This document shows positions 31,601-48,857 of a stretch of DNA of 64,000 nucleotides, one piece after another (positions within the stretch are counted from its first letter, which is position 1; every line of letters starts with the position of its first letter). This DNA is from Pseudomonadota bacterium (GTDB taxonomy: Bacteria; Myxococcota_A; UBA9160; JADFDR01), in contig PIVT01000014.1 of the NCBI GenBank assembly GCA_003353845.1, positions 3,538 through 67,537 on the forward strand, read 5' to 3'. Position numbers and translations under genes: made by a program. Below the pieces are notes generated by a model. That model saw only the letters and a program-made list of their open reading frames with translations, did not search any database and was not told the DNA's origin.

Positions 31601-34375
31601 GATTTCAAATCCCTTCAAATACAGGTAGGAATTGGAATCGGTTCTGGGCTGTCCGAGACCGGGAGGATTGGGAACTTCTCTTTCCGCCATGGTGAAGCTG
31701 GACGGCGTCGTGCCGTGCTGCAAGTCTCCGCCAAACATGAAGGGGTTTAAACGCATCCCCATCTCACTGGTGCCGGGCCATTGAAAGAAGAAGTCCTTGT
31801 AATAGGTCCTGTCTTCGACAAACCCACCCAGGTTACAGGCGCTACCTTTACAATGAATCCAACCCCCGGTGTGATAATCAGGGAGATTGGTAGACCAGGT
31901 CGTTGTGGTTCCATTCAAGGTACCCAGCGCAGGACCCGAAGGGCCGTCTGCGCCGGTGTAGTCGAAGTGGCTGTACACATAAGCCAAACCGGGAGATCCG
32001 GCCACGAAGTACATGGATATGCGGTAGTCCGACATCACCACCGAAGTGCCATTGGTAGAGATGCCCGTGGAGGTTCCGTCATCCTGGAAGGTCAAGGTCA
32101 CCGTAGAGGGATCACCCGCCGGATCGGGAGCCCAATCCGTGCCGTTATCATTGTCCGTGTCTACAGCAGAACCACCCGTCCCGGCTCTGTAGCCCCAGGA
32201 GCCATCGGAGTCGCCACCAATGGGTCCAGGATTACGGTCGCCTGCACCGTTGGCGGGCGTGTTACGGACATTCAAGAGACTTCCCGTCAATGCACTTCCA
32301 GAAACCCCCGAATGCGTCCAAACGGGATTCAGATCGGTATTGGAGATGTCATAGGTGACCTTCCAAGTACCCACCTGGCCTTCGGGGCCGCTGCAGCGAT
32401 CACACGCGTCACCACCGGTAATCCCGTCGCCGAGTTCCATGCCATCGCCATCGCGGTCTCCCTGGTCGACATTGGGCACATCGAGACAATTGTCGCAGGC
32501 ATCGCCCACGCCATCGCCATCGGTATCTTCCTGGCCCGTATTATAGGTGTTGGGGCAATTATCAACGTTGTTGGGCAGGCCGTCGCCATCAGGATCGACG
32601 TCCAAGAGTTTGCCATTGACGAAGAGACCGTCATCAGCCGCAACTCGTGGGCCTCCAGAGGGATACCTGCCGTGACCGAGATCTTGGTAGGAGAAACCAA
32701 CAGTACGCGCCAACCCCATGCGCCAAGCCGCTTGGTTCATGACCAAAATACCGCCCTCAAGCAATCCATAGGCTCTCACGGTAATTGGCATGCTGTACTG
32801 CAAGGTGACGGACGCTGGCCCGACGCCATCCAAAATACCCGAGACCGTTTGATCCACGGGGAAGTCACCGCCGTCTTGACTGCCCAGGCTTGGGACCGTG
32901 AGGTCTCCTGTCAAGAGACTGGCTGCACCGTAGTTCACCAGCAAGGTCGGAGTCACTTCACCAACGATCACATATCCGTTGTCTTGACTTGTACCGGATG
33001 CACCCAAGCGCTGGGTCGTCAGTTCCATCTCCCAATACTCACCCTCGGCTGCATCCACCATCACATCTACTTCATAGATATAGGTGGGGTAGATTTTCCC
33101 CGTACCTGTTTTGCCAACGGATTCAGTTGCCGTCAGCGCAGTAAAGCGGGCCGAGAAATCACCCAGGGGGCCGGGTGTAAAGGCAGGCACATCGGCACCC
33201 GATCGCCACTGATTTTGCCCTGGAGGATGGAAGCTATCCTGACCGAGTAAATTGGTTTCATACCAATCCGTTCGATACCGAACAACCCCAGACCAGGCAC
33301 CCGTGGTTCGGTTGCGTGTATCCACACCAACGATTTCTGCACCACTGGAAGCGGCCGGACCAGCACAAGCATCGCCGACGAGGTCACCATCCGTATCTAA
33401 TTGATCATCGTTGTAGTCGTTAGGACAATTGTCGACATCGGCAGCAATGCCATCGGCATCCGTATCGACCAGGAATCCATTAACGAAGATGCCGTCCAAA
33501 TTGATATCGCGACTGCCCTGGGCGCCATTTTGCTTATACCAACCATTGCTCAGATACCCGGAATAGCGACCGATGTAAGTGATACTGTTGTTCATCCCCA
33601 TGCGGAAGGCAGCTTCCGAACGGTATAAGGTATTGGGAACCATTCCGTAAGCCATCACGCCAGCAAGCATGGTGTAGGAAATCGTCACCGAGGCCGGGCC
33701 CGTACCACTGAGGTAAGTCGGACCTGCACTCACATTGTTCTCAAAAAACGGAGTGTCTGCTGCGGATTGGTCTAACATCTCAACACCCAGGGTGAGATCA
33801 CCGCTGTCCAGCACCGTAGGCACATGGTTGATGGCCACCGTAGCTGTCGCGGCGCCAATATTCACGATGTGCCGGCTACTACTATTCCCGTAGGACACAC
33901 TCCCGGCACCGGCTCGATAGGCGCTCAAGTCCAGCTCCCAGTATTCGCCTTCATCGGCGCCAATGCTCACATGGATGTCGAACATGAATTTTGGATGAAG
34001 CGAGCCTTTATTATTCCAGGCAGACTTGGCGGAAGCCCTACCCGTAAATCGCGTATCGAAGTCAAGTGTAGTGTTCGATCCCGTAATGGCGGAGTCATGC
34101 TGAGACTGACCATTGGGTTGGTAGGCCGTATCTTTCACGGTATTGGTATTGCTATAGGAGGTTCCCAGAGGAAAAGAACCGGGTGCGTTACTTGAGCTAC
34201 TCCAACCCGCCTGGGTCTTGTTGATGAGCTGGATGCCCAGCACCTCGGCGGCCTGGGCCGCTGGCGCCAACCATAAACCGCAGAGCAAGATTGCAATGGA
34301 GCTCGAAATCTTGCTTTTTTGACTCTTCAGGAAAGTATTCTCTCTACGCAGCTGCTTAACACCCATTTCATCCAT
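28640..34375 (-). CDS. 1911-aa secreted hyper-acidic Ca-binding repeat protein (thrombospondin type 3 repeats, paralogous beta-rich modules, C-terminal double dockerin-like repeat)
   Basis: Signal peptide ...ILLCGLWLAPAAQA. Multiple DxDxDGxxDxxDNCPxxxNxxQxD units. The C-terminus GDINGDGAANNDDVTEILLALWGYG / DVTGDGNCNNDDVTEILLPLWGYG forms a dockerin type I-like pair. Confidence 0.85.
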   Translation of the reverse strand: MDEMGVKQLRRENTFLKSQKSKISSSIAILLCGLWLAPAAQAAEVLGIQLINKTQAGWSSSSNAPGSFPLGTSYSNTNTVKDTAYQPNGQSQHDSAITGSNTTLDFDTRFTGRASAKSAWNNKGSLHPKFMFDIHVSIGADEGEYWELDLSAYRAGAGSVSYGNSSSRHIVNIGAATATVAINHVPTVLDSGDLTLGVEMLDQSAADTPFFENNVSAGPTYLSGTGPASVTISYTMLAGVMAYGMVPNTLYRSEAAFRMGMNNSITYIGRYSGYLSNGWYKQNGAQGSRDINLDGIFVNGFLVDTDADGIAADVDNCPNDYNDDQLDTDGDLVGDACAGPAASSGAEIVGVDTRNRTTGAWSGVVRYRTDWYETNLLGQDSFHPPGQNQWRSGADVPAFTPGPLGDFSARFTALTATESVGKTGTGKIYPTYIYEVDVMVDAAEGEYWEMELTTQRLGASGTSQDNGYVIVGEVTPTLLVNYGAASLLTGDLTVPSLGSQDGGDFPVDQTVSGILDGVGPASVTLQYSMPITVRAYGLLEGGILVMNQAAWRMGLARTVGFSYQDLGHGRYPSGGPRVAADDGLFVNGKLLDVDPDGDGLPNNVDNCPNTYNTGQEDTDGDGVGDACDNCLDVPNVDQGDRDGDGMELGDGITGGDACDRCSGPEGQVGTWKVTYDISNTDLNPVWTHSGVSGSALTGSLLNVRNTPANGAGDRNPGPIGGDSDGSWGYRAGTGGSAVDTDNDNGTDWAPDPAGDPSTVTLTFQDDGTSTGISTNGTSVVMSDYRISMYFVAGSPGLAYVYSHFDYTGADGPSGPALGTLNGTTTTWSTNLPDYHTGGWIHCKGSACNLGGFVEDRTYYKDFFFQWPGTSEMGMRLNPFMFGGDLQHGTTPSSFTMAEREVPNPPGLGQPRTDSNSYLYLKGFEISREFVPPSALDDVDNDLVVCEVDNCHAINNPGQEDISGDGIGDACEEPNSDTDGWRDDLDNCPFTFNPDQLDSDGDAHGDACDNCDLIVNPDQLDSNGDGQGDICQKRDRDDDGWPNVEDNCGYDYNNDQADIDCDDIGDVCDPDNATPWTDIDLDGVCDRYDACDGNDATGDTDSDGVCDDIDDCLGDDATGDADADDVCDDIDICNGDDATGDTDGDLLCDNIDPCPLDNPDDTDGDGVCDADDQCQGNDLVGDADADGFCDDLDACYGDDAAGNSDGDGYCDDVDLCQGDDDSGNDDADGYCNDVDVCNGDDDSGNDDGDINCNDSDVCTGMDESGDADADTICDDSDECPGLDDLADADNNGLQDCLQTCAVGEDNDGDEVCGAADVCPGASPAPEFDDNIDTEANGVPDCLELACLVGDETLNQGAARTNWIWSGYAQTVLSLAPYGQEFVPQQPTLRAIEISLYDDDPALPNDPMQIILHEGSLAGPVVATSVDVTPFDGDFTPGKMVRFDFPTDIDVAIGNMYVFEVVAPNHRASPSYWDTTNPYLAGTGFYHQWGVITANGSDLGFETISAREGLTRGGDTDQDTICDDLDQCPGEDDLPDLDANGIIDCLQLCAVGEDADGDDVCDAVDACPGMDDHLDVADGGNGLPDCLELYCLTGGDTVDQKANNTVPANYSITGWASLGQRFQPSQPILRGINWWLQDVVPTEPNDPIYIKLHDGSLFTDPVIATSVPVTPFDGVFTMGLVRFNFPTEVAVVPEQTYLLEVVVPNTRAGTTPWYSVYSRGGGVIWGTNTSSADFGFESIYPGDGVSYGGDADLDTVCGHIDLCPGEDDTIDLAPADGTPDCAQGPCVAFGGDADADGFCDAGPDPDLCPDSANVTNTDTNGDGIGDECQCGDINGDGAANNDDVTEILLALWGYGAYTQPSNNWAICDVTGDGNCNNDDVTEILLPLWGYGAYNSPTVRWSCGGDSSPPVGLP
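29160..30360 (-). repeat. two ~243-aa paralogous coding modules inside the giant gene
   Basis: LELACLVGDETLNQ...LGFETI and LELYCLTGGDTVDQ...FGFESI align along their length. Examples are IILHEGSLAGPVVATSVDVTPFDG versus IKLHDGSLFTDPVIATSVPVTPFDG. Confidence 0.8.
30540..31150 (-). repeat. about 9-10 tandem 21-aa (63-nt) acidic di-cysteine coding repeats
   Basis: The unit is C-x-G-D/N-D-x-x-G-D-x-D-x-D-G-x-C-D-D-x-D-x. Examples are CLGDDATGDADADDVCDDIDI, CNGDDATGDTDGDLLCDNIDP, CYGDDAAGNSDGDGYCDDVDL and CQGDDDSGNDDADGYCNDVDV. Confidence 0.85.
32425..34240 (-). repeat. two ~300-aa paralogous N-terminal modules inside the giant gene
   Basis: EGEYWELDLSAYRAGA...GPASVTISYTM...FRMGMN...DGIFVNGFLVD aligns with EGEYWEMELTTQRLGA...GPASVTLQYSM...WRMGLA...DGLFVNGKLLD. 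Each module ends in TSP3 repeats, and the spacing is 900 nt. Confidence 0.8.
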
Positions 34376-34497: not shown

Positions 34498-34520
34498 ATT
34501 GCATACCTTGGGTATGCAAT
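34498..34520. promoter_or_regulatory. perfect 10-bp inverted repeat overlapping the -12 element and predicted start site
   Basis: ATTGCATACC-TTG-GGTATGCAAT read directly. The right arm contains the TTGCA of the sigma-54 -12 box. Confidence 0.4.
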
Positions 34521-34530
34521 TGACATGCCA
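34515..34530 (-). promoter_or_regulatory. sigma-54 (-24/-12) promoter for the giant repeat-protein gene
   Basis: The minus strand reads TGGCATGTCAATTGCA, against consensus TGGCACG-N4-TTGCA. The GG and GC dinucleotides are at the exact spacing with one mismatch. It lies about 140 nt upstream of ATG 34375. Confidence 0.65.
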
Positions 34531-34921: not shown

Positions 34922-35320
<399 letters not shown>

Positions 35321-35350: not shown

Positions 35351-36721
35351 CTAGTAGCGGTAACCCGTTTCTTCGTGCAGAGCGAGATCGAGTCCCTGAT
35401 TCTCGTCCTGAGCCGTTACGCGCAATCCGATTGTCTTATCGATTCCCTTCAAGAGAATGTAGCTGACCAGACCCGTATACACAGCGGTGACAACGGCAGC
35501 GCAGAGCTGCGTACCGAATTGGCTTCCTATGTTCAGGCTCCCTTGGTTGCCACCAAAGGATTCAGCGGCAAACACCGCGACCAGTAAGGTTCCCACGAAG
35601 CCACCCACACCATGTACGCCAAAAACATCCAGGGAGTCATCGTATCCAAACTTGCGCTTGAGGCTGGTCGACGCGAGGAAGCAGACTGCCCCCGAGACAA
35701 TTCCGATGCAAAGTCCGCCAATGGGACCGATAAAACCAGAGGCGGGTGTGACCGCCGCCAATCCTGCAACAGCCCCCGTCGCCAGGCCCAAGGCGCTTGG
35801 TTTCTGGTGAATAATCCACTCAATGCCCATCCAGGTAAGCCCGGCTGCCGAAGCGGATAGGTGAGTCACGGTAATGGCCATGGCGGCGTCTCCATTGGCG
35901 GCCAGGGCACTGCCGCCGTTGAAGCCAAACCAACCCACCCAAAGCATGCCGGTACCCGTCAGGGTCATAGTGAGGTTATGGGGGATCATGGCCGTTGTTT
36001 GATAACCCTCGCGCGGCCCGATCACGATGCAGGCCACCAATGCCGCGATGCCGGCCGTGATGTGTACGACAATTCCGCCGGCGAAGTCTAAGACCCCTTT
36101 ATCTGCAAAAAAGGCACCGTCTCCACCCCAAACCATGTGGCAGATGGGCAAGTAAACCAGGATCAGCCAAAGACTTGAGAACCACAGCATGGCCGAGAAC
36201 TTCATGCGCTCGGCAAAAGCGCCGACGATGAGCGCGGGTGTGATAATGGCGAAGGTCATTTGAAAAGCGAAGAAAAGGACCTCGGGGATGTTCCCTGTGA
36301 GCGTGTCACCCGTGATTCCCAACAGGAAAGCCTTGGAACAGCCGCCGATGAAGGAATGCAGGCCGACCTTCCCCACTTCCATCCCCGTGCTATCGAAAGC
36401 CGCGCTGTAACCAAAGACAAGCCAGAGCACACTCATGAGAGCTGTTAGTGCCAGGCATTGCATCAGGACGGAGAGCACATTCTTGGTTCGAACGAGACCT
36501 CCGTAAAAGAGAGCCAAGCCCGGAATGGTCATAAAAAGAACCAAGGCCGTGGAAATCAGCATCCAAGCGGTGTCGCCGCTATCGAGAGTGGCGTCCGCAG
36601 CATGGGCTGAAGTCGCTTTGGCGAACATTAGAAATACAGGCAGGAAAACTTGTAAACTCTTCAATGCCAGTTTAAATCGAGTTGTTGGGATTGTCTTCGA
36701 CCGTGTAGCGTGGGTTTCCAT
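35351..36721 (-). CDS. amtB: ammonium transporter
   Basis: 456 aa. DSGDTAWMLISTALVLFMT, DFAGGIVVHITAG and GVHGVGG motifs, with an N-terminal signal sequence. Confidence 0.92.
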   Translation of the reverse strand: METHATRSKTIPTTRFKLALKSLQVFLPVFLMFAKATSAHAADATLDSGDTAWMLISTALVLFMTIPGLALFYGGLVRTKNVLSVLMQCLALTALMSVLWLVFGYSAAFDSTGMEVGKVGLHSFIGGCSKAFLLGITGDTLTGNIPEVLFFAFQMTFAIITPALIVGAFAERMKFSAMLWFSSLWLILVYLPICHMVWGGDGAFFADKGVLDFAGGIVVHITAGIAALVACIVIGPREGYQTTAMIPHNLTMTLTGTGMLWVGWFGFNGGSALAANGDAAMAITVTHLSASAAGLTWMGIEWIIHQKPSALGLATGAVAGLAAVTPASGFIGPIGGLCIGIVSGAVCFLASTSLKRKFGYDDSLDVFGVHGVGGFVGTLLVAVFAAESFGGNQGSLNIGSQFGTQLCAAVVTAVYTGLVSYILLKGIDKTIGLRVTAQDENQGLDLALHEETGYRY

Positions 36722-36866: not shown

Positions 36867-36906
36867 TAAAAAATTGCAGCGCTCCCTGTCTTCAGGGAGC
36901 GCTGCG
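36867..36906 (-). terminator. rho-independent terminator of the cytochrome operon
   Basis: On the minus strand, GCAGCGCTCCCTG-AAGAC-AGGGAGCGCTGC (12-bp stem) is followed by AATTTTTT. It lies 33 nt after the stop at 36939. Confidence 0.85.
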
Positions 36907-36938: not shown

Positions 36939-38720
36939 TTATGCAATTCCCTCCTTCGCGTCAGCTGCGGAGTTCTTTTCGTGTTCGGCTACGAGCTTGT
37001 CGTATTCCAACCCGTGTTCCTCACGCAGGCGCTCGGTGCTTATCATTCCGGTCAGCATGCTCTTATCAAAAGGAAAGACTTCTGGACGGAACGTGACGCC
37101 CCAGAGGTGCCAGATCAGCACGACGAGCACGGCCAAGGTCGCTTCATAACCATGGGCCACTCGTGCTGCAACGAGAACAACACCGGGGAGGTAGGTGGTT
37201 GTGAACTCTGGGAAGACCAAGATAATCCCTGTCCCACCGATCAACACACCACCGAGGAAGAGTCCCCAGTACTCGAACTTCTCACCGTAATCGAACTTTC
37301 CGAAACGGGGGGCCGGGCCCAAACCCATCTGATGTCGCAGGCTCTCAAAGATATCCTTGAAATCCTTTACAGTGGGCAAGATATCCGGTCGATGATGCGA
37401 GCGCAGCGTTACAAAGACGCCGTGCACCACATGCGCCACCATGATCGCGACGAATGCAAAACCACACACGCGATGGATGAAACGTGCCGAGAAAATGCCA
37501 CCCCAGAAGTCGATCACGGCTCCGGCCACACCAGAACTCGGATAGCCTTGGGGGATCCCGGTGAGCACCAACAGAATGAACAAGAACGCCACTGCCGAGT
37601 GCTCCGCACGCTCCAGTTTCGTAAACCGCATCACGCTGGCAGGTAGCCCTTCAAAGATGGCCTCCTCGTCCGGCGCTTCGGCTCTGCGTGTTCGGTAATG
37701 ATGGGTGAGCTGGATGATGATGTGCACAAGCAAACCAACCAGCATCATGGGAATCAAGAACTGATAGGCCATGCGAACGATCCACACGAGGACCCCACGC
37801 TCCGGTCCGAGCTCACCATGCCCCAACCAGGCACCGGCGAATTGTGTTGATGCGCCATCGTGGCACTCAGCACAAACCGCGACTACCTCTTCTTCTGTCA
37901 GAGGCCCCACATTGTGCGGGCCATGACAGGTGGCACAGGTCATGATCTCCGAGGGGTCGGTGCCTTCCAAACCTGACAATAAGTGCTGAAAAGTAAGCCC
38001 GTGAAAATCATCCATATAGGAGGTGACCACAGCGCCTTCTCGCTCATACTTGAGAACGAGCAGGCTATCATCCGAATGGCAATCGATGCACAGGGTCGTC
38101 ACACGGGCGATCATGGGCAAGTCAGCCCCCTCGCCCCCGCCATGCGCCGGGTGACAGGTATTGCACTCTGGCAAGTCAGCGTTGGGGTCTGATTCCAAAG
38201 TAGCTTCCGAGTGACCACCGGCCTCGAAGTCCTCAAACTCCTCCTCGTGGCAGCTATCACAGCGGTTGAGAATGGTCAGAGGGGCTGTTTCAAAGCTGCT
38301 ATCAGCGTGCGCGGAGTGACAATCCACACACATTGGAGCATCGTCGCCCTCGGAACTATGTTCTTGCAGGGTCTCTTCATGACAGGACTGGCAGAGTTCG
38401 GATCGCATCTGCGCATACTCACGTGCGCTCATGTCGTAATCGAAATCTGGATGGTCATCCACGTACTCTTCACCATGGCACGACTCACAAGCCAGGATCT
38501 CTCCGTGCGCCGACTTACGAACCGCAGCGCCATCAAACTCAAAGTAAATAACCTTGCCACTATCGAAAACGAACTCCACCTCGTCCGGATCCATATCTTC
38601 GTGACAATCCAAGCACTCCGCGTTCAGTTCATCAATTTCTTCGGGGAGCAAGTCCTGCCCCCACGCAGGAACTGCGAGGGGCAGGAACAACAGTACAAGG
38701 GCAACAACCGAGATACGCAT
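36939..38720 (-). CDS. nine-haem c-type cytochrome fused to a membrane cytochrome b (HydC/FdnI-like) domain; CbcL-like quinol oxidoreductase
   Basis: Signal peptide followed by nine CxxCH motifs (CLDCH, CESCH, CQSCH, CVDCH, CDSCH, CNTCH, CIDCH, CATCH, CAECH). The C-terminal ~290 aa has about 5 TM helices with conserved His. Start set at ATG 38720, preceded by AAGGAG. Confidence 0.8.
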   Translation of the reverse strand: MRISVVALVLLFLPLAVPAWGQDLLPEEIDELNAECLDCHEDMDPDEVEFVFDSGKVIYFEFDGAAVRKSAHGEILACESCHGEEYVDDHPDFDYDMSAREYAQMRSELCQSCHEETLQEHSSEGDDAPMCVDCHSAHADSSFETAPLTILNRCDSCHEEEFEDFEAGGHSEATLESDPNADLPECNTCHPAHGGGEGADLPMIARVTTLCIDCHSDDSLLVLKYEREGAVVTSYMDDFHGLTFQHLLSGLEGTDPSEIMTCATCHGPHNVGPLTEEEVVAVCAECHDGASTQFAGAWLGHGELGPERGVLVWIVRMAYQFLIPMMLVGLLVHIIIQLTHHYRTRRAEAPDEEAIFEGLPASVMRFTKLERAEHSAVAFLFILLVLTGIPQGYPSSGVAGAVIDFWGGIFSARFIHRVCGFAFVAIMVAHVVHGVFVTLRSHHRPDILPTVKDFKDIFESLRHQMGLGPAPRFGKFDYGEKFEYWGLFLGGVLIGGTGIILVFPEFTTTYLPGVVLVAARVAHGYEATLAVLVVLIWHLWGVTFRPEVFPFDKSMLTGMISTERLREEHGLEYDKLVAEHEKNSAADAKEGIA

Positions 38721-38730
38721 GACGATCTCC

Positions 38731-39834
38731 TTAGCGAACATTGGCCAGACGGAAGACTCTTATGATCTTCTCGCTGACTCCATAAGCAACAGCCGAAAAT
38801 ATGATCAAGGGCAGACAAACGATGTAGGCCAATCCCTTGAACGGTGCGGCAACCAACCTTCCGAAGTCACGCAATGAACCTGGATCAAAGGTCATCGAGT
38901 CAACGACTGGCGCCATGCGCTCTTCTTCGGCCACGACAGCAGGGGTCTCGATTCCAGTCACCACTGCGGGACGAAGTGCCTTCGCAAACAGCATCCCGGT
39001 TCCGTAGATGGCGGCCGCAATACCGATTACCGGCAAGAACATGATGAACGCCAAACCGATGAACGGAGAAACCGCCAATCTGCCGAGTTCGCGAAGTGAA
39101 CCTGGATCAAAGGTCGTCGCTTTAACCGCTGGCTCCGCTTTTTTCTCTTCGCATACAACAGCGGGGGGCTCGATTCCGGTTACCACGGCAGGTCGGAAAG
39201 GCTTCGCAACCAACATTCCGATTCCGTAGATCGCTGCCGCAATACCAATCACCGGCAGGAACATGATGTAAGCCAAGCCCATGAAGGGAGAGACCATCAA
39301 TCTCACGAGTTGGCGAAACGAGCCTGGTTTTGCTTCGGCCGTCTCTACAACCTGCGCAGTCTCTTCCGTTTTTCTTACCAATTGATGGATCGTCGCAGTG
39401 CCTTCGGCAGTTTCGGACACCTCAGCGGGATCGTCGGCAACCACTGCGTGAGCCCAGGATGATTGATCACCGCGCAACGCAGCCAATGCCATTTCTTCCA
39501 GATCGTCCGGGGATACCGGCTTCTCCAGATATCCGTAAGCACCCAGCTTGCGCGCCTTCGCTTCAACCTCAGGGCTACCATAACCAGTAATGAGTACGAA
39601 GGGGGTATCGGGCTCGTTATCGTGCAACCACTCCAGCAATTCCAAGCCATCCGCCCCAGGCATCCGGAGATCGGAAATGACCAGGTCAACGGGGTGAGAC
39701 TGCAATCCGCAAATCGCGCTATCTCCGTCCGCTGCGGTCGTTACCATTCGCTCATCCGTCGATAAGAGGCGCCTCCATCCTTCTCGGACGCCCTTTACGT
39801 CGTCCACGAACAAGATTTCTTGTCTATGTGCCAT
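38731..39834 (-). CDS. response-regulator receiver fused to three tandem hydrophobic repeats (unknown output domain)
   Basis: The REC domain has FVDD, VISDLRMPG, LITGYG and LEKP. It is followed by 3 copies of a ~74-aa unit with core SPFxGLAxIxFLPVIGIAAAIYG. An upstream start at ATG 39861 is possible. Confidence 0.8.
   Translation of the reverse strand: MAHRQEILFVDDVKGVREGWRRLLSTDERMVTTAADGDSAICGLQSHPVDLVISDLRMPGADGLELLEWLHDNEPDTPFVLITGYGSPEVEAKARKLGAYGYLEKPVSPDDLEEMALAALRGDQSSWAHAVVADDPAEVSETAEGTATIHQLVRKTEETAQVVETAEAKPGSFRQLVRLMVSPFMGLAYIMFLPVIGIAAAIYGIGMLVAKPFRPAVVTGIEPPAVVCEEKKAEPAVKATTFDPGSLRELGRLAVSPFIGLAFIMFLPVIGIAAAIYGTGMLFAKALRPAVVTGIETPAVVAEEERMAPVVDSMTFDPGSLRDFGRLVAAPFKGLAYIVCLPLIIFSAVAYGVSEKIIRVFRLANVR
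38734..39330 (-). repeat. 3 x 222-nt tandem coding repeat (last copy shortened)
   Basis: GAACCTGGATCAAAGGTC occurs at 38876 and 39098, exactly 222 nt apart. A diverged third copy sits near 39320. The protein-level repeats are DPGSLRELGRL..., PGSFRQLVRL... and DPGSLRDFGRL... Confidence 0.85.
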
Positions 39835-39838
39835 CGTG

Positions 39839-40303
39839 TTAGTTTCTCGTAGCGCTAGCATGTTGCACCTCCCGGGACCGCAGTCCCCACGTCAGCTCTT
39901 GACCTGGCGCAAAACACCAAGTCCGCTGTTCCAAAATCCGACGGACAGAGCGCACGACACGCTCCACGCCCGATGTGTCTAAATAGGTCTCTAAAAATTC
40001 CACGGAGCATGCGCTCAGATAGGCGGCCAAAATCACGGAAATGCCTTCTTCCACGATTGCCACCTTTCGCAAGCCGGGATACTCAAGGCTCAACCGGCTC
40101 AACACGATCAACAGTGATCCAAGTCGAAGCTCACTCACTCGGAAGATGAGTACGGCAATGGATGACAGGCGGTCGCTGTGGATCAACGCTTCCAAGTCGT
40201 GAAAGCACACGATGGGAAGTCCATCTCTGATCAAGGACTCCGCCAGTGCATCGTCTGCGGGGCCGCTTTCCAGAATGGCTATGAGGTTGGGTTGGTCATT
40301 CAT
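39839..40303 (-). CDS. pseudo-receiver-like protein (REC fold lacking the acidic pocket)
   Basis: 154 aa with a beta-alpha pattern like CheY. It reads LIAILESG where DD is expected and IAVLIFRV where the phospho-Asp strand is expected. First gene after the sigma-54 promoter. Confidence 0.45.
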   Translation of the reverse strand: MNDQPNLIAILESGPADDALAESLIRDGLPIVCFHDLEALIHSDRLSSIAVLIFRVSELRLGSLLIVLSRLSLEYPGLRKVAIVEEGISVILAAYLSACSVEFLETYLDTSGVERVVRSVRRILEQRTWCFAPGQELTWGLRSREVQHASATRN

Positions 40304-40365
40304 TTTCTATCTCGTTTTGGTCGTCTCTAACAAACAAATGAAAACTCTTTCCACCTCCTCTCTAG

Positions 40366-40381
40366 TGCAAGCTGCGTACCA
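40366..40381 (-). promoter_or_regulatory. sigma-54 (-24/-12) promoter of the pseudo-REC / REC-repeat / cytochrome operon
   Basis: The minus strand reads TGGTACGCAGCTTGCA, against TGGCACG-N4-TTGCA. There is one mismatch and the GG/GC spacing is exact. It lies about 60 nt upstream of ATG 40303. Confidence 0.7.
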
Positions 40382-40681
40382 ACAAACTGGTGGGAACCCT
40401 TCACTGGGGTCGATGTTCTAACTGATTGTAAATGCAAAGTTTTTCAGAGGGCCTGCGAAAGCGGGAATTTGGCAAATCGCGGCTAGTGTATGCAGGGCAT
40501 ATACGATCTCGGAAGACCGCCGTTTAGCTAAAAGCTGCCTGCCTCGCTAAGGCCTCGTTTTATTGAAACTTTTCAAGAGACATCACCCGATCGGCACTGC
40601 GAATTCAACCGTATACCAAACACATACACATTCCCAAAGGGAATGCAGCAGATCCAGCTAGAGGCTTGAGCAGGTGTCGGT

Positions 40682-42151
40682 TCAGGTGTCGGTGGAAGAA
40701 GTGTCTTCAGCGCCGTCTTCACCATTGTCAGAAATTTTTGGCACGCTCACTCCGTGCTTGCGCATGAGGGCGTGAAAATTCGTGCGCTGCATGTCGACCA
40801 CGCGCGCCGCTTCAGTGACATTCCAGCGCGCTTGCTGAAGCGACTTGATAACGAAGAGCTTCTCGAGCCGTTCCACCGCCTCCGCGCGCAACTCCTTCTT
40901 CCGAGCCGCCAGGGCGCGGGCATCCTCGGGAATGTCTTCATTCTCAATGGCGGAGTGCTCACCTAAAATCGTGGGCAAGGAATCGATATCGATGAACTCC
41001 GTGTCGGTGAGAAGTACCGCACGCTCGATCACGTTCTCAAGTTCGCGCACGTTTCCAGGCCACTCGTGCACCTCAAGAGCAGAGAGCGCCCGCGGTCGAA
41101 TACCTCCAATGGGTTTATCGAATTCTTTTGAGCATTTCTCGATGAAGTGGTGCGCAAGCAAGGGGAGTTCCTCGATCCGCTCGCGCAGCGGCGGCAAGGC
41201 GACAGTGAAGACAGCCAGGCGATAGTAGAGATCCTCACGAAAGGTACCGTTCTCCACCAATTCCTTGAGGTCCTTATTGGTCGCAACGACCAAGCGCACA
41301 TCTACACTGACATATTTGTCAGCACCCACGGGTCGGATTTCACGCTCTTGAAGAAGCCTCAGCAGGCTGCTCTGAATTTGCGGTGAAATCGTAGCGATCT
41401 CGTCCAGGAACAGTGTGCCTCCGCGTGCGGACTCGACCAGGCCTTTGCGATCGCGCACGGCTCCCGTGAAGGCTCCACGCACATGTCCAAAAAGTTCAGA
41501 CTCCAAAAGTGATTCGTTCAGGGCAGAGCAATCGGCCACAACATAGGGATTGTCTTTCCTGGGGCTGTTGTAGTGAACCGACTTGGCGATGCAGTCCTTA
41601 CCCGTCCCTGTTTCACCAGAAATAAGAATCGTACTATTGGTAGGAGCCGCCTTGGCCACCAGCTGCATGACGACTTGCATCTTCGGTGACGAGCAAACCA
41701 ATCCACCAATGCGATGCCGAGTCTCCAATTCCGAACGCAGTCGCTCGGTTAGGTTGAGGAGGTGTCTGCGCTCGAGAGCGCGGGCCACGGTGATCAGGAG
41801 TTGATCCGGTGCCACAGGTTTCTGCAGGTAATCAAATGCACCTTGCCGAATAGCATCGATGGCTGTCTCGATGGTCGCATATCCCGTTACGATCACAACC
41901 TCGGTTTCAGATGCGGTCGCACGCGCCTCGCGCAATACCTCCATGCCGTTAAGCCCGGGCATTTTTATATCGAGCAAGAGAAGATCAAAGTTTCCATTTC
42001 GTAAGAGTTCAATCCCCTCCTTCGGGTCACAAGTCGTCGTGACGTCGTAGCCTTCATCGCTGAGCACCCGTCGAATGCTCTCGCAAACCACGGCCTCATC
42101 GTCGATGGATAGGACCTTTGGGGAAAGGTCCCACTCTTCATTTACTGGCAT
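40682..42151 (-). CDS. sigma-54-dependent response regulator (NtrC family bEBP)
   Basis: REC ([11 protein letters not shown]), AAA+ Walker A GETGTGKD, the GAFTGA loop (RGAFTGAV), and a C-terminal Fis-type HTH ([25 protein letters not shown]). Confidence 0.9.
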
Positions 42152-42162
42152 AAAACTCTCCT

Positions 42163-43800
42163 TCAGCTTTCACTCTCTGCATCTGCAATGGCTACAGCGA
42201 CGGGCAGGAGAACCGTAAACTCGGTCCAACTCTGTCCGTCGCTATCAATGATGATGGTTCCGCCGTGACGAGTTGCGATCCCATAGGAAATCGACAAACC
42301 AAGGCCTGAGCCTTGCCCGGCTGGCTTTGTCGTAAAGAACGGTTCGAAAACCCGCGCAACGTCTCTCTTTGAAATTCCGTGGCCGGTATCTCGAACGCGA
42401 AAGCGAACCAGAGAAATGGATCCACTATCGGGCGGCAAACCGTGCTCTTCGAAGTCCGCGCGCGGAACTTTATCTACCTTCATAGAAAGTTTCCCTCCCG
42501 GCTTCATCGCTTGAATCGCATTCAGCATCAGGTTGAGAAACACTGGAGTCATCTGACTTTTGTCGACCTTGATTCCGGGGAGGTCCTCAGCGACAAGGCA
42601 TTCCTCCTCGATGTCCTGCTCACGGAGCTTCGGGCGTACCAACTTCAGCGTGTTCTCCAAAATCTCCCCAGGGCTGCAGACCTCCATGGGGTGATCCGTT
42701 TTCTGATCCCGTGAGAAATCCAGAAGATTTCGGATGATTACCGCACAACGGTTCGCCTCGTCCAAAATCATTCCCACGTCCTCGTATTCCTGCGACTCGG
42801 GATCGAAGTTTTTCCGCACAAGATGGCCGAAGGTAATAATAGCCATGAGCGGGCTATTCAATTCGTGGGCTACACCGGCCGCGACCAAGCCCACTGCTGA
42901 AAGTTTCTCCGCTTGCATGGCCTGATATTGTGCCGTGCGCACCTCCCTGGACTTCTCGTGCAGTTCATCCTTCAGGACACTGATCCACTCCTGCTCCTGG
43001 GCCCGCGACACGTGCATGTTCTCAACCATCTTATTGAATGAACTGGTGAGGACACCGATCTCCGACGCAGCAGGGGAAGAGATCGTCTGAGAGAAGTCAC
43101 CACTGGCCACCTGTCGCGTGGCCTCGATGAGATTCCATATCGGCCGGTTGACGGTGACCTGAACCAAAACGAACAAGCCAAGCGATATCAAAATCAAGAC
43201 GCTCATGGAAACACCGGCGGCTTTCCAACTGGCCGCAACGATGCGCTCCTCTGTAGGTTCCATGGACATGCTCACATCCAGAACCCCAAGGATGCTCTTG
43301 GTTTGCATATCCGCGTGGCATTCCTCCTCTCCGCAGCGCTTCTCGTTCTGGATCACACTGATCGTGGAAAGCATCTTTTGGCCAGCCTCATTCTCATAGA
43401 CTCTAGAACGCTCGGCGATGGAGAGATGCCGAATGGGTTTATTCGCGTCATGGCACAGGAAACAGGCCTCAGCGTTCTTGTCCACCATCATTCCGACTTC
43501 AATCGGAGTGGATGAATGAGAGATCTCGCCCTCCTTATTAAAGAGGCGGATCCGATCCACGCCGGGGTGGCTCCCCACAGAGTAGATAATCTCCTGCACG
43601 CCTTTCGGATTGTCCTCGAGCATCTCGTGGGAAATGCTCAGGAGAAGCATTTCCGCGACGTTGTCGCTGCTGTGGATAACTTCTTCAAGTACCTGGCCGC
43701 GCTGATTGGAAATGAGTGTCGCCGAAAGAATGATCATGCCGACAGCGACGAGGATCGCCGCCGATAAAGAAACCCGAGTTCCCAGCGTCATTTGCTTCAT
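42163..43800 (-). CDS. sensor histidine kinase with haem-motif periplasmic domain and HAMP
   Basis: Two TMs flank a ~170-aa domain containing CFLCH (CxxCH) and CGEEECH (Cx4CH). HAMP follows, then the H-box GVAHELNSPL and an ATPase with DTGHGI and GSGLGLS. Confidence 0.85.
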   Translation of the reverse strand: MKQMTLGTRVSLSAAILVAVGMIILSATLISNQRGQVLEEVIHSSDNVAEMLLLSISHEMLEDNPKGVQEIIYSVGSHPGVDRIRLFNKEGEISHSSTPIEVGMMVDKNAEACFLCHDANKPIRHLSIAERSRVYENEAGQKMLSTISVIQNEKRCGEEECHADMQTKSILGVLDVSMSMEPTEERIVAASWKAAGVSMSVLILISLGLFVLVQVTVNRPIWNLIEATRQVASGDFSQTISSPAASEIGVLTSSFNKMVENMHVSRAQEQEWISVLKDELHEKSREVRTAQYQAMQAEKLSAVGLVAAGVAHELNSPLMAIITFGHLVRKNFDPESQEYEDVGMILDEANRCAVIIRNLLDFSRDQKTDHPMEVCSPGEILENTLKLVRPKLREQDIEEECLVAEDLPGIKVDKSQMTPVFLNLMLNAIQAMKPGGKLSMKVDKVPRADFEEHGLPPDSGSISLVRFRVRDTGHGISKRDVARVFEPFFTTKPAGQGSGLGLSISYGIATRHGGTIIIDSDGQSWTEFTVLLPVAVAIADAESES

Positions 43801-44301: not shown

Positions 44302-46290
44302 CTACTGACTGGGTGTCTCATCCACTTTCCGCACCTTGAAGAAGGACATCAACTTCTTTAGTCCCTGTGCCTGGGACGACAGTTGCTCGGCAGTGCTCGA
44401 TAGCTGTTCCCCTGCGGTGGCGTTCTTTTGGGTGACGCGATCCATTTTGGACATGGCCTCGGTGATCTGATTCACGTTGGACGATTGCTCGTTGGAGGAA
44501 GCGGCCACCTCCTTCACAAAGTTGGCCGTATCCTGGATCGCGGGAATAAGAGCCGTGATCAAAGATCCCGAATGCTCGGCAGCCTTGACGCTCACACCTG
44601 CCACTTCGCCGATCTCCTGAGCCGCAGCACGGCTGCGCTCCGCCAGGCTGCGCACCTCCGAGGCGACGACAGCAAAGCCTTTGCCGTGTTCCCCTGCGCG
44701 AGCCGCCTCGATGGCCGCATTGAGCGCGAGGAGATTCGTCTGGTAGGTGATCTCCTCCACGATGGAGATCTGTTCGGCGATGCTTTCCATGGCGTAGCCG
44801 GTCTCCTCCACGGCTTGTCCGCTCTCTTCAGCACTGGCACAACTCTTGGTAGCCATCTGCTCAAGCCGGTGGCTATTCTCGGCGTTCTGCAGGATGGAGG
44901 TGCCCATGTCTTGGAGCACCAAGGCAGCTTCACTTACTGCGGCGGCTTGTTCGCTGGTTCCGCTAGCGAGGCCCTGCGAGGATGAGGCCACTTGCTCAGC
45001 AGCCAGGGAGAGTTCCATGGACTGCCCGTGTACATTTCGAATGACACCGTTGAGGCGCGTGGCCATATTATCCAAGACAATCCCCAGCTGACCTAACTCG
45101 TCCTCGGAGCCGAATCCAGAGCGGCGCGAGAAATCACCCGAAGCGATACGTTCCATCTCTCCTCCAAGCTCGCGAATGGACCCCGCATAACCTCTGGAGA
45201 AACAGAAGATGGCCAGCATCCCGATGCAGAATATCGAAGCGACGAGGATCCCGAAGATCGGTCGCACTTCGGCGACGCGCCCTCCGTAGGCAGTATTCCG
45301 CGTGTAGGCGACCAGGATGTAGGGTTGGCCCTCGATGGCGCGCCAGGAAAAGAAATAAAGGGTGTCGTAGGCGGTGCTATCACCCTGGGTGAGGGTCTCT
45401 CGATCACGGCGAATGATGTCGAGTTCTTCGGAGTGCAGGGCCTCCTCGCCGTAGACATCGAACATTGTTTTCTCTGTGAGGTCTACCGTCTGGACGCGAA
45501 TGGCAAGGAGATGCGCTAAGCGTTCCTGGCTCTCGATGGATCCCTCGACATCTAGACCGAATTTCAAATCCTCTTCGATCAGATCGAACATCTCCGCCTG
45601 TCTTTGAATCGTATAACGTTCGACGAAGCGCTCGGATTCTCGCTGTGCCATGGCCACACCGAACACGACCGCCGAAAGCACCAAGCCGCAAACAATCCCG
45701 AGGAGTTTAACTTGGATATTCAGTCGCAAGATTCCAGTGTCGCCTCTTTCCCATTCGGGCAACCAACGCTTGATCTCACGGCGTACCGGATCGAAGTGGC
45801 GCTTCAGGGAATACATTCCCGTGATCTGCGTAACAACGGAGGCCAGCGCAATGGCGACAAAGAGAATACCCGCGCTCTTCTTCGTGAAGAGATCCGAATT
45901 CGAAAGCAGCGCCACATCCAACACCACAGCGTTGATGAGCCACAAACAAAAATAATTGAGATTCATCTTCCAGGGTGTGTTGATGCTGGTGACATACGCC
46001 TGTGTCACCTCCTGCGGTGTCAGGTCCGCGGGGCTCGGCGCATCCAAGAAGACTGCGATGGGTCGAAGCCAGTAACTGAAGATGAAATGGTTGGCGATGA
46101 CAGACAAAATGCCGAGGCCGATGGCAATGACGGAGGCAATCTGAATCTGTGGCGGCGTCATGCGCAATAGCAAGGCGATGAATCCGATGAGAATGGTGGC
46201 GCCGATAGTGGCGTTGAACCCACCCGTCTGGATCACGCGATTTGTGAACTGGCGCCCCGAGGGCAGCGTTGGCGTTTCCATTTGCTCCAT
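44302..46290 (-). CDS. methyl-accepting chemotaxis protein with a six-TM input region
   Basis: HAMP plus the signalling hairpin [39 protein letters not shown]. Five predicted TM helices precede a ~150-aa loop, followed by a sixth TM. Confidence 0.88.
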
Positions 46291-46629: not shown

Positions 46630-47880
46630 TCAGATTTCGCGAATCACCGCTCGCGGATTCTCGAAGCGTGTATCGTCTCCCGACTCGTAGGGCTCGCTAA
46701 AGGTCAGTGGGATGGCCACCCTGCTCAAGACGGTGAACAGCAGTATCCCCACGGCCGCAATACCGATCCCGATCATAACCTCGGCAAGGGAGGGCACATA
46801 CTCATAGACCTCACCGAGGGTCCCGGGCGTGAACCCCGGAAGAACGAGGCCGATACCCTTCTCGATGAACACGCCAACGAAGACAAGTACGCAGCCGAGA
46901 TTCATGAGGAAGGTGTTCTGGCGAAGATGTGGAGTCAAGAGAAGGAAAAAGGCGATAATGTTGAAGAGCGCCCCGGTCCAAGCCCAGCTCACGAGGCTCA
47001 CGTGACCCTCAATGCCTCGGAAATAATACTGCATGTGGACAGTATGGGCGGTAGCCGAGCGGAACTCTGTGATGACCTCGGCGAAGAAGAGCAGGAGATT
47101 GACGAAGAGAACGATGGAGATCATTTCTGCAATCTTCTGCAGTGCTTCCTCGCGAATATTGATATTGGCAGTTTTTCTCAGGATCTGAAAGGCGATCACC
47201 ATGAGCGCCGGCCCTGCGCAGAGAGCGCTCGCAATGAAGCGCGGAACCAGGATGGCGGAGTTCCAATACGGGCGCGACGGCAGCACGTTGAAGATGAAGG
47301 CCGTCGTCGTGTGAATGCTAATGGCAGCGGGGATCGAGAACAGCATCAAGCTCATGAAGATGAATTTATTGTAGGGCTTACCGACGAAGGCACAGTAGAG
47401 GAAGTAAGTGACGATCACGATGTTGAGGACCAGGTAACCGTTGAGGATCATCACGTTCATCCCGATCATCGAGGTAGGCAGGTTTGGCGTACCGACGACA
47501 GGAAGCAAGTGCCAAAAGCGCTCCGGGCGCCCGAGGTCCGCCATGACAAAGAGGATGCACATCACCACCGCACAAATCGCGATGATCTCGCCGAGCACGA
47601 CGATCTCCTTGATGGGCTTCCAGTGATAGACATAGCCGGGTACGGCGAGGGCCATGGCGGCGGCGGCGACACCTACAAGGAAGGCATAGGTTCCGATGAA
47701 CATTCCCCAAGGCACGGGATCGCGCATATTCGAAACGATGTGCCCGTGCGCCAGTTGCTGTTGGTATCCGCTGACCCCGACGAGCACGAAGGCGAGCAGG
47801 ATCGCGAGCCACATATAATAAGTGCTGCTCCCGAACACTATCTGCTTCACACTGAATCTGATGAATTTCAAGAAGTCCAT
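46630..47880 (-). CDS. NrfD/PsrC-family polytopic quinone-interacting membrane subunit
   Basis: 416 aa with about 10 TM helices. Its position after a Tat-FeS NrfC-like subunit fits the family. Assignment rests on context and composition. Confidence 0.72.
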   Translation of the reverse strand: MDFLKFIRFSVKQIVFGSSTYYMWLAILLAFVLVGVSGYQQQLAHGHIVSNMRDPVPWGMFIGTYAFLVGVAAAAMALAVPGYVYHWKPIKEIVVLGEIIAICAVVMCILFVMADLGRPERFWHLLPVVGTPNLPTSMIGMNVMILNGYLVLNIVIVTYFLYCAFVGKPYNKFIFMSLMLFSIPAAISIHTTTAFIFNVLPSRPYWNSAILVPRFIASALCAGPALMVIAFQILRKTANINIREEALQKIAEMISIVLFVNLLLFFAEVITEFRSATAHTVHMQYYFRGIEGHVSLVSWAWTGALFNIIAFFLLLTPHLRQNTFLMNLGCVLVFVGVFIEKGIGLVLPGFTPGTLGEVYEYVPSLAEVMIGIGIAAVGILLFTVLSRVAIPLTFSEPYESGDDTRFENPRAVIREI

Positions 47881-47924
47881 GTCGCGCTCCCAAGAGGAAA
47901 AAAGTTCAACCTTTACCGCTCACA

Positions 47925-48857
47925 TCAATCGCCATAGAAGTAAAAGAACTTCGGCCTTGTATCGAGCTCTGCCTTCAAGACGAAAGTTCGTTTATTCTCC
48001 ATCAAGTACCGGATCTCACTATCGGGATCGAGAAGATTCCCGAACTTCCGGGCGCCGACGGGACAAGCTTCAACACAGGCCGTATAACGTCCTTGCCGCG
48101 TGCGTTGAATGCACCAGGTACACTTTTCGACGACGCCGTGTTCCCTGGGGCGATTACCCAAGATGTGCATATTGGGATTGATCTCCTCGGCTGGGATCTG
48201 CGGTTCGGTCCAATTGAAGTGGCGTGCTCCGTAGGGACAGGCCGCCATGCAGTAGCGGCAGCCAATGCACCAGTCGTAATCCATGACGATGATGCCATCG
48301 GGCTCCTGCCAGGTCGCTTGCGTCGGGCAAGCCTTCACGCATTCCGGGTTCTCGCATTGCTGGCAGGCCACCGGCAAGTAGAACTTACCCTCGGCAGGTA
48401 CCTTCTCATGGTCGTAGAAGGGGTTCCCATCTTCGAAGTCAATCCGACGCAGGACATCGGTTCTCTCGAATTCGAGGACGCGAATCCAATGGATCTCCGG
48501 GCTGCGCGATTGGTTGTTCTCTTCGACGCAGGCATACACACAGCGTCGGCAACCAATGCAGCGTGAGACATCCAAGCCGTAGCCAAAGAGCACATCATCC
48601 ATAGGGCCCGTAACGCCCAGCTTCACTTCCTTGCCAGAGCGTTTGGAGTATTTCTTCTCCAGGCGCTCGATGAGGCGGTCGAGTTCTTCAGGGGAAAGCT
48701 CACGGAAGTGCTTCTGGAACAACGCTTCAAAATCAATCTTCGCATTGGCGGCTGCAGGGACCCCGGTCAATGCGGCGGCTCCAGCTCCCGCCGCCTTGAG
48801 AAACTTGCGACGTGAGTGCGAGGCACACGCCGTCGTGTTCTTATCAATCTTCTTCAT
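47925..48857 (-). CDS. Tat-exported 4Fe-4S ferredoxin subunit (NrfC/PsrB/HybA-like)
   Basis: Twin-arginine signal SRRKFLKAAGAGAAALTG. Cluster motifs CIGCRRCVYAC, CQQCENPECVKACP, CIGCRYCMAACP and CTWC...CVEACP. Confidence 0.87.
   Translation of the reverse strand: MKKIDKNTTACASHSRRKFLKAAGAGAAALTGVPAAANAKIDFEALFQKHFRELSPEELDRLIERLEKKYSKRSGKEVKLGVTGPMDDVLFGYGLDVSRCIGCRRCVYACVEENNQSRSPEIHWIRVLEFERTDVLRRIDFEDGNPFYDHEKVPAEGKFYLPVACQQCENPECVKACPTQATWQEPDGIIVMDYDWCIGCRYCMAACPYGARHFNWTEPQIPAEEINPNMHILGNRPREHGVVEKCTWCIQRTRQGRYTACVEACPVGARKFGNLLDPDSEIRYLMENKRTFVLKAELDTRPKFFYFYGD

Follow-up and report, generated by a model that had tools for sequence, protein, structure and literature searches.

The 64-kb stretch of contig PIVT01000014.1 analyzed here, called the window throughout, carries on its minus strand a block of five genes that encode, in order, a histidine kinase, an NtrC-type sigma-54 activator (a bacterial enhancer-binding protein, bEBP) and, beyond a spacer of 378 bp, a 154-aa open reading frame (ORF), a receiver protein and a multihaem cytochrome. 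It is reasonably probable that these genes form a self-contained, inducible respiratory module in which a haem-sensing kinase acts through the activator and sigma-54 on a CbcL-type operon. By analogy with published systems, the cassette is BccR-type sigma-54 control, known for CbcBA, joined to a CbcL-type enzyme, a type that is constitutive in Geobacter. An earlier reading of the same DNA, made from the letters alone (hereafter the sequence-only reading), had listed these genes, and all of them were found on the minus strand where it had placed them. Their positions in the window, with those of the associated elements, are as follows.

42163-43800, minus strand: histidine kinase, 545 aa, with HAMP, HisKA (H312) and HATPase_c domains by Pfam, and a scan for transmembrane (TM) segments and motifs.
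43216-43707, minus strand: predicted periplasmic sensor domain of the kinase, residues ~32-195, with CXXCH at 43450-43464 and CX4CH at 43315-43335.
40682-42151, minus strand: NtrC-type sigma-54 activator (bEBP), 489 aa, by Pfam and NCBIfam, with GAFTGA at 41459-41476.
40304-40681: spacer of exactly 378 bp between the activator gene and the 154-aa ORF.
40611-40627: distal candidate activator site, a GTAT-N9-ATAC palindrome (GTATGTGTTTGGTATAC), by pattern match.
40488-40504: proximal candidate activator site, a GTAT-N9-ATAC palindrome (GTATATGCCCTGCATAC), by pattern match.
40366-40381, minus strand: candidate sigma-54 (-24/-12) promoter, TGGTACGCAGCTTGCA, 62 nt before the ATG at 40303.
39839-40303, minus strand: predicted pseudo-receiver, 154 aa, from its predicted fold, Foldseek and residue conservation.
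38731-39834, minus strand: predicted membrane-tethered receiver, 367 aa from M10 (the ORF reaches 39861), Response_reg E 2.6e-26.
38734-39333, minus strand: three tandem membrane units in the tail of the receiver protein (39112-39333, 38890-39111 and 38734-38889), by alignment.
36939-38720, minus strand: CbcL/MtoC/MtrH-family cytochrome, 593 aa from M8 (the 600-aa ORF reaches 38741), assigned by Pfam and by alignment to CbcL.
37860-38615, minus strand: nine-haem c domain, within the cytochrome gene.
37077-37628, minus strand: FdnI-type di-haem b domain, within the cytochrome gene.
36876-36905, minus strand: predicted intrinsic terminator with a 13-bp stem (10 G-C pairs), a 4-nt loop and a T-run.

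On comparative grounds, the block is a conserved cassette and not a chance neighbourhood. A scan of GTDB at one genome per species, with an alignment of the cytochrome as query, gave 80 loci, and partner genes were counted at those with at least 5.5 kb of upstream DNA. All four partner genes accompany the cytochrome at 34 of the 38 loci with a cytochrome identity of at least 37%, and at one of the 17 loci below that value (a case at 36.9%); conservation of the five-gene neighbourhood had been named beforehand by the sequence-only reading as a test that could refute it. In metagenome contigs with a cytochrome 37-61% identical, the order is again kinase, activator, a gap of 300-430 bp, small ORF, receiver and cytochrome. 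The carriers are metagenome-assembled genomes (MAGs) of Gemmatimonadota/Longimicrobiales, together with a few labelled delta proteobacterium, Deltaproteobacteria or Myxococcaceae, and it is these delta- and Myxococcaceae-labelled MAGs that hold the closest relatives of the window cassette (76%, and 61-65%). Distant members of the cytochrome family that lack the partner genes belong to Nitrospirota, Acidobacteriota, Rokubacteria, Chloroflexota and Planctomycetota. Clustering of the ORFs across 46 loci revealed no sixth conserved functional partner, only the cassette genes and their antisense shadows. An opposite-strand ORF for a membrane protein lies near the cassette at 40 of these 46 clustered loci and is absent from the window.

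The DNA upstream of the small gene, compared across 45 distinct loci, is conserved in a manner that points to the adjacent activator. The sequence-only reading had described a 378-bp spacer with a -24/-12 element, and both the length and the element were confirmed. A loose -24/-12 pattern has 2 matches in the 64 kb against 0.24 expected, so that the match before the operon is by itself suggestive and becomes significant because it is conserved in relatives: a -24/-12 element precedes the operon at 45/45 loci. At 37 of these there is exactly one GG[CT]A[CT]-N6-TGC, which precedes the start codon by 44-131 nt (mostly 55-80), against a background of 0.07 per kb. The remaining eight loci form a Gemmatimonadales subgroup and have GGCA[CT]-N5-[TG]TGA at an unchanged position. 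In this subgroup (L004, L006, L011 and L013-L017) the -12 'TTGC' has become 'TTGA' or 'GTGA', an unusual variant conserved within the clade. The GTAT-N9-ATAC palindrome is exact at 39 of the 45 loci and present with at most one mismatch at all 45 (background 0.065 per kb), and in the whole window it has two matches, both in the spacer, where 0.17 would be expected. Measured from the GG of the promoter, the proximal copy is at -113 to -124 at nearly all loci and the distal copy at about -229 to -247 at most of them; the extended consensus is TGTAT-N9-ATACA, and that of the proximal site is cTGTATa.g....gcATACAc. Such a layout is typical of promoters served by enhancer-binding proteins, with the two palindromes as likely binding sites of the activator. 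That promoter and palindromes are conserved at fixed spacing argues strongly, on comparative grounds, for sigma-54-dependent control of the operon by the adjacent activator, and the dedicated sensor and activator pair proposed by the sequence-only reading gains support from the same data.

The adjacency could instead be incidental, with the kinase and activator controlling other genes and the cytochrome operon using another promoter. A single -24/-12-like match per window may occur by chance, and no strong sigma-70-like site was found either way. However, two distant lineages share the gene order, the promoter and the pair of palindromes with their fixed spacing, and the same palindrome adjoins homologous activators in other types of operon, as described below. 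Incidental adjacency is thus regarded as exceedingly improbable.

At the head of the proposed pathway stands a kinase with two predicted TM segments (residues 4-34 and 187-221), which bracket a periplasmic domain of ~160 aa containing C113-FL-C-H (CFLCH, a CXXCH motif) and C156-GEEE-C-H (CGEEECH, a CX4CH motif). Haem-attachment motifs in a periplasmic domain had been proposed for this protein; the CXXCH motif and the periplasmic placement held, and the second motif is to be read as CX4CH. Residues C113, C116, H117, C156, C161 and H162 are invariant across 26 sensor-domain sequences, two Desulfuromonas proteins included. Pfam gave a weak match of the domain to PF21563, and a profile of the sensor family matched the haem-c PAS sensors 3B42 (GSU0935) and 3B47 (GSU0582) with E values of 1.1e-4 and 0.011, respectively, the CX4CH being aligned on their CXXCH. 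By this homology, which bears out the idea of a periplasmic haem sensor, the domain is assigned as a two-motif (CXXCH + CX4CH) form of the haem-c PAS sensor, and it would carry covalently bound haem, in the form of one or two periplasmic c-haems.

Haem sensor domains commonly act by binding small ligands, and the kinase could detect O2, NO, CO or sulfide and not redox poise, which would make the cassette an oxygen- or NO-responsive switch. The relationship to 3B42 and 3B47, haem-c PAS sensors of solved structure, fits such a role, and Gemmatimonadota are commonly described as aerobes, which renders an O2-off switch plausible. The sequence itself does not separate ligand sensing from redox sensing, but induction of cbcBA in Geobacter tracks falling redox potential (bioRxiv 10.1101/2021.04.15.440034), and ligand sensing is considered a serious, if somewhat unlikely, explanation.

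The activator, on which a redox-responsive kinase would act, has a REC-Sigma54_activat-AAA_lid-HTH_8 architecture by Pfam, with GETGTGK as its Walker A motif; the NtrC-type bEBP with an intact GAFTGA loop reported by the sequence-only reading is therefore present, the loop being at residues 226-231. It is 46% identical to the bEBP encoded divergently from a cbcA/cbcB-like pair in Desulfuromonas thiophila. In this organism homologues of both kinase and activator flank the cbcBA-like operon, a GTAT-N9-ATAC palindrome lies upstream of cbcA, and the kinase beside the pair has a sensor 31% identical (E 1e-29) to that of the window kinase, with both motifs present. A metagenome scan with the D. thiophila sensor found ~10 loci that pair sensor and bEBP with cbcA/cbcB-like genes. 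In two further loci (L093/L094, 5600-9834), the kinase, the activator, two palindromes and a -24/-12 promoter at 126- and 228-nt spacings stand before an operon whose products are small membrane proteins of 83-91 aa, receiver-like proteins of 129 and 170 aa, a cytochrome with five haems and an iron-sulfur (FeS) protein with a Tat signal, which on gene content is a third enzyme type under the same regulatory module. Because it is found before several kinds of quinol:cytochrome c oxidoreductase, the regulatory module is, as far as gene context can tell, portable.

The same loci hold further copies of these elements. In the D. thiophila locus L088 (positions noted: 8567, 14040 and 18357/18472), GTAT-N9-ATAC also occurs 130 nt upstream of a frameshifted cbcL. 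Another copy precedes a 71-aa ORF and nrdD, and exactly 115 nt downstream of this copy there is a -24/-12 site; the regulon of the D. thiophila activator may, on these matches, be larger than cbcBA. A two-haem-motif sensor domain without kinase domains is encoded downstream of cbcB (L088, 16260-17063) and may, by description, correspond to GSU0591. At another locus (L114, 8001-9869), the two-haem-motif sensor is part of a second full kinase, encoded directly upstream of cbcA and with a Cys-rich insert in its ATPase domain.

The enzyme at the end of the operon was compared chiefly with the frameshifted CbcL gene of D. thiophila, which matches published fragments of G. sulfurreducens CbcL (PMC9129911 supplement). 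The two are colinear, with 27% identity over 586 residues (E 1e-52) and a one-to-one correspondence of their nine CXXCH motifs, which in the window protein begin at residues 43, 85, 117, 138, 161, 193, 218, 269 and 290. Its predicted layout is a signal peptide, the nine-haem c domain, a linker TM segment and the di-haem b domain, with five predicted TM helices after the signal peptide. Pfam assigns paired-CXXCH, c7 and c3 models to the c domain and Ni_hydr_CYTB (PF01292; residues 372-555, E 3e-13) to the b domain. The family profile matches E. coli FdnI (1KQF_C) over its whole length (E 1.4e-12), and H381, H423, H530 and H545 align with the FdnI b-haem ligands H18, H57, H155 and H169. In the alignment to CbcL that the sequence-only reading had suggested, made here with the D. 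thiophila protein, the b-haem His residues are in register, and the count of b-domain histidines gives four FdnI-type ligands retained; nine further conserved His residues are candidate distal ligands of the c-haems. No match to the CbcB-like subunit was obtained, and the CbcA-like subunit gave only a weak c-domain match (E 5e-9), as compared with E 2e-52 for CbcL. The start codon is probably that of M8 (38720), because the 593-aa form is on record; this start would correct the one used in the sequence-only reading, of which the nine-haem c domain and the dihaem-b-type membrane domain stand.

In CbcL itself, a c domain with nine haems is joined to a membrane domain of the HydC/FdnI type, which has two b-haems and six helices (PMC9129911), and the CbcL/MtoC/MtrH family, defined by N-terminal multihaem c and C-terminal b-type TM domains, extends over 15 phyla, with one Gemmatimonadetes homologue in the published survey and identities down to 28.6% (PMC6295460). 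By alignment and domain content, the window cytochrome is a member of this family and a distant homologue of CbcL, not its orthologue: the CbcL orthologous group, known as the quinol oxidase required for acceptors below about -0.1 V, has 57-100% identity and six TM helices, and a protein with 27% identity and five helices, the C-terminal helix of D. thiophila CbcL being missing, falls outside it. The term 'CbcL-like', as used in the sequence-only reading, is accordingly apt for full-length colinear homology and would be misleading if taken to mean orthology. From its two domains, the enzyme is expected to link the quinone pool to periplasmic cytochromes.

Members of the family occur in Fe(III) reducers and Fe(II) oxidisers alike (PMC6295460), and electrons may run in the opposite direction, with the cytochrome serving as an MtoC-like quinone reductase fed by reduced cytochromes, Fe(II) or H2-derived electrons and induced in a reduced periplasm. 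The family has been argued to be bidirectional on account of its Fe(II)-oxidiser members (PMC6295460). At one Gemmatimonadota-type locus (L007, 3539-9110) the cassette is followed directly by an operon for a periplasmic NiFe hydrogenase (small subunit, FeS protein, NrfD, large subunit and HycI), and in a 76%-identical relative (L001, 1976-11932) by hypABCDE. A second kinase and activator pair and two more cytochromes are also encoded after the cassette at the latter locus. The hydrogenase of L007, however, has an NrfD-type membrane subunit of its own, hydrogenase linkage is seen at 1-2 of 45 loci with no conserved donor-side partner found, and the only characterised relatives under BccR-type control are quinol oxidases (bioRxiv 10.1101/2021.04.15.440034). 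Reverse flow is for these reasons considered unlikely.

The two proteins encoded between promoter and cytochrome belong to families without curated models. The 154-aa protein matches no Pfam or NCBIfam family, and no Response_reg match was obtained even at E<=1; its family comprises at least 147 proteins, and the source names given are all 'hypothetical protein'. An AlphaFold2 (AF2) model built with 33 homologues (pLDDT 81, pTM 0.75) has a (beta-alpha)5 sandwich in the order b1a1...b5a5, and Foldseek returned 50 PDB matches (E<=1e-3) that consist almost entirely of receiver domains, with the atypical receivers of TadZ/CpaE (4LDA, 4DAD and 4DN6; E 2e-5 to 1e-4) and the receivers of HupR, NtrX and NtrC4 at the top. 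In alignments of 18 or 33 homologues, the columns for the acidic pocket, the phospho-acceptor Asp, the Thr/Ser and the Lys are unconserved, and the alpha4-beta5 segment 'AEYLTACGV' is highly conserved. Because the receiver fold is kept but the phospho-acceptor residues are not, the protein is, according to the model, a pseudo-receiver with a CheY-like fold and no phospho-acceptor pocket, in agreement with the sequence-only reading. A match to FAAP24 in a PDB profile search (E 0.015) was marginal and was judged to be due to chance.

The receiver protein, by comparison, retains across 47 homologues the acidic pair DD, the Asp of 'SDLRMPG', the Thr of 'TGYG' and the Lys of 'KP', and on this conservation it is a true, phospho-competent receiver. 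It is 36-38% identical to the receiver of the activator itself, and the alpha1 helices of the two are partly similar. A receiver with three membrane repeats had been proposed; the repeats were recovered, and the start was moved to M10 (39834), which is probably correct. Alignment divides the tail into three 74-aa units with the core 'SPFxGLAYIxFLPVIG' in the window, two of which are visible in the DNA as a 182-nt direct repeat (79% identical, copies 222 nt apart); Tandem Repeats Finder did not detect this 222-nt-spaced repeat. Each unit has ~35 hydrophobic residues with basic flanks and a family core 'AP[FI]xGLAFVxFLPVIG', and no Pfam or NCBIfam model covers it. Receiver homologues mostly carry one copy, two of them carry two and the window protein three. 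Because the copy number varies and basic residues stand on both sides, a hairpin or monotopic anchor fits the unit better than a single spanning helix. In a library of 1.8 billion proteins, the unit ('AAPFxGLAY..LPxxG') also occurs in ~80 small stand-alone proteins (P0245-P0327) in 2-3 tandem copies, and it is fused once to an N-terminal fragment of HypA (P0251) and once to another receiver (P0249).

Encoded together with the cytochrome, the two accessory proteins might act on it directly by gating, assembling or localising it in response to phosphorylation, in line with the post-translational tuning proposed by the sequence-only reading. The three operon genes are predicted to be strictly co-transcribed at 45 loci, with small gaps (-4 to +47 nt between the small gene and the receiver gene), the receiver is membrane-tethered, and the alpha4-beta5 face of the pseudo-receiver is the conserved one. 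No fusion or Rosetta-stone case was found, however: apparent fusions of pseudo-receiver and receiver at L016, L065, L071 and L043 are ORF-extension artefacts in which stop codons separate the genes. The membrane unit, moreover, is present in many proteins unrelated to cytochromes, and the cytochrome occurs without either accessory gene at one locus (L040) and without the pseudo-receiver at another (L042). Direct action of some kind is accordingly given a low probability. A more specific form, in which both proteins would dock on the cytoplasmic face of the CbcL-type enzyme and gate its activity or assembly according to phosphorylation set by the kinase, with the membrane unit as a general tether to membrane redox complexes, is speculative and quite improbable; if true, a respiratory quinol oxidoreductase would be under two-component control at two levels, through its transcription and through direct action on the protein.

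Under the preferred reading, that of a transcriptionally induced module, the PAS-like domain of the kinase would report the redox or ligand state of its haems, mirroring the periplasmic pool of electron carriers. The kinase would phosphorylate the adjacent NtrC-type activator, which would bind both TGTAT-N9-ATACA palindromes upstream of the -24/-12 promoter, a wiring supported by conservation, and drive sigma-54 transcription of the three-gene operon up to the strong terminator. In the resulting enzyme, the FdnI-type di-haem b domain would exchange electrons with the quinone pool, and the nine-haem periplasmic c domain would pass them to or from periplasmic carriers, presumably outwards to the latter. 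The favoured role for the tethered receiver is to take phosphate from the same kinase, as a membrane feedback element or a phosphate sink, with the pseudo-receiver as its probable soluble partner. By analogy with BccR/CbcBA, induction would be expected when the periplasm becomes reduced or acceptors are poor. The terminator proposed by the sequence-only reading exists as a hairpin with a T-run and begins 34 nt beyond the stop codon of the cytochrome gene, just outside the range (36939-43800) within which it had been placed.

Several points weigh against this reading. Four close loci (L034, L078, L083 and L084) lack the partner genes. CX4CH is a rarer haem-attachment motif, and haem occupancy of either kinase site is assumed. 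The occurrence of the cytochrome family in both iron reducers and iron oxidisers means that the direction of electron flow is unreadable from sequence alone. The link to BccR rests on D. thiophila as a proxy and on literature descriptions, and not on the sequences of Geobacter BccR, GSU0599, GSU0596 and GSU0597. The window activator gene points the same way as the operon, unlike bccR, which is divergent from its own. Finally, a profile of the small protein, run with filters off against the proteins of cbcBA-type and L094-type operons, gave nothing significant, so that the accessory genes and their Geobacter counterparts may not share a common origin.

Elsewhere the window has ordinary chromosomal content, with glycine cleavage, Mla, amtB/glnB and similar genes, and Rfam gave no match to an RNA family within the 64 kb. 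Electron-transfer genes abound in the neighbourhood. Immediately upstream of the kinase, following a c7-like cytochrome operon, lies a gene for a methyl-accepting chemotaxis protein (MCP; 44302-46290, minus strand). That operon (46630-49512, minus strand) combines the gene of a c7-like multihaem cytochrome with those of a 4Fe-4S protein and a membrane subunit of the NrfD type, a set reminiscent of the Cbc4 complex of Geobacter. Farther away, a 930-aa protein (61117-63909, minus strand) contains both a paired-CXXCH multihaem motif and a Laminin_G_3 (concanavalin-like) domain. Another -24/-12-like site, TGGCATGTCAATTGCA (34515-34530, minus strand), lies just downstream of the amtB (35351-36721) and glnB P-II (34922-35293) pair and ~140 nt upstream of a gene (28640-34375, minus strand) whose 1911-aa product is a secreted protein that has thrombospondin type-3 repeats.

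In Geobacter, three inner-membrane quinol oxidases divide the range of redox potential among them; for CbcBA alone is a switch by a sigma-54 activator, BccR, known. The cassette would place the same regulatory module on a CbcL-type enzyme, in contrast to the constitutive CbcL of Geobacter. Each of its parts has a known relative, namely the CbcL/MtoC/MtrH family, BccR-type control, haem-c PAS sensors and pseudo-receivers, and it is the combination that is new. In the literature searched, no description was found of such a regulatory module on a CbcL-type enzyme or of its prevalence in Gemmatimonadota, nor were the TGTAT-N9-ATACA boxes or either accessory family found described. The cassette is widespread in Gemmatimonadota; this phylum is abundant in soil, and little has been established about its capacity for anaerobic and extracellular electron transfer. 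The cassette could serve to mark regulated quinol:cytochrome c exchange in genomes. The doubled candidate activator box, the fixed promoter geometry, the candidate cognate kinase with two haem motifs and the two uncurated accessory families provide experimental handles, and the cassette is a tractable system for asking which signal haem-c PAS sensors read.

Among known systems, the haem-c PAS sensors GSU0582 and GSU0935 share with the window sensor a profile match over the N-terminal helices and the strand bearing the haem motif. The window sensor differs from them by an insert of ~35 residues carrying a second motif (CXXCH), with the CX4CH at the ancestral site, and by an output through a histidine kinase in place of an MCP. 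TadZ/CpaE proteins, the best structural matches of the 154-aa protein, are labelled 'CheY-like protein (tadZ)' and pilus-assembly proteins by Foldseek. Their N-terminal receiver domains are not known to have a phosphorylation site; there is no sequence relationship, however, and the 154-aa protein stands alone, its gene sharing an operon with that of a respiratory enzyme. CbcL (GSU0274, with its orthologues in Desulfuromonadales) has in common with the window cytochrome the succession of a nine-CXXCH c domain and a HydC/FdnI-type di-haem b domain, and differs in the identity and helix count given above. At three Desulfuromonadales-type loci, two of them from noisy Geobacter-like assemblies, no kinase, activator or receivers were found before cbcL. 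The survey of the CbcL/MtoC/MtrH family examined neighbouring cytochrome and MtrB genes only, and the term 'response regulator' was not found in it (PMC6295460).

The closest precedent is the bccR/cbcBA locus of Geobacter, and the sequence-only reading, which did not recognise its arrangement as described, needs amendment in this respect. There, a sigma-54 promoter drives genes for two hypothetical proteins, a response regulator, CbcB and CbcA, followed by a terminator, and BccR (GSU0598) was shown experimentally to be required for the sigma-54-dependent induction of cbcBA (GSU0597-GSU0593) at falling potential (bioRxiv 10.1101/2021.04.15.440034). Common to both systems are an NtrC-type sigma-54 activator adjoining the operon of a bc-type quinol oxidoreductase, known in the window from its genes, and a -24/-12 promoter followed by small accessory genes and a response regulator, with the cytochrome last and then a terminator. 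The likeness may extend to the sensor. The two G. sulfurreducens proteins with two such haem motifs are GSU0599, a two-component protein, and GSU0591 (PMC8396549; PMC3831638), both of which, judged from their locus numbers, appear to flank bccR and the cbcBA operon. As with the window kinase, and going by their published description, they have two CX2-4CH motifs in a PAS-like periplasmic domain; the BccR paper mentions no histidine kinase (bioRxiv 10.1101/2021.04.15.440034). The window differs from cbcBA in its pseudo-receiver and tethered receiver, which are without detectable relatives in the cbcBA-type loci examined, and in having a fused CbcL-type enzyme and not a two-subunit one of CbcA (7 haems) and CbcB. 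In Geobacter, cbcL is constitutive, as is imcH (bioRxiv 10.1101/2021.04.15.440034). In evolutionary terms, the window module can be read as the regulatory logic of Geobacter BccR/cbcBA joined to a fused cytochrome of the CbcL type.

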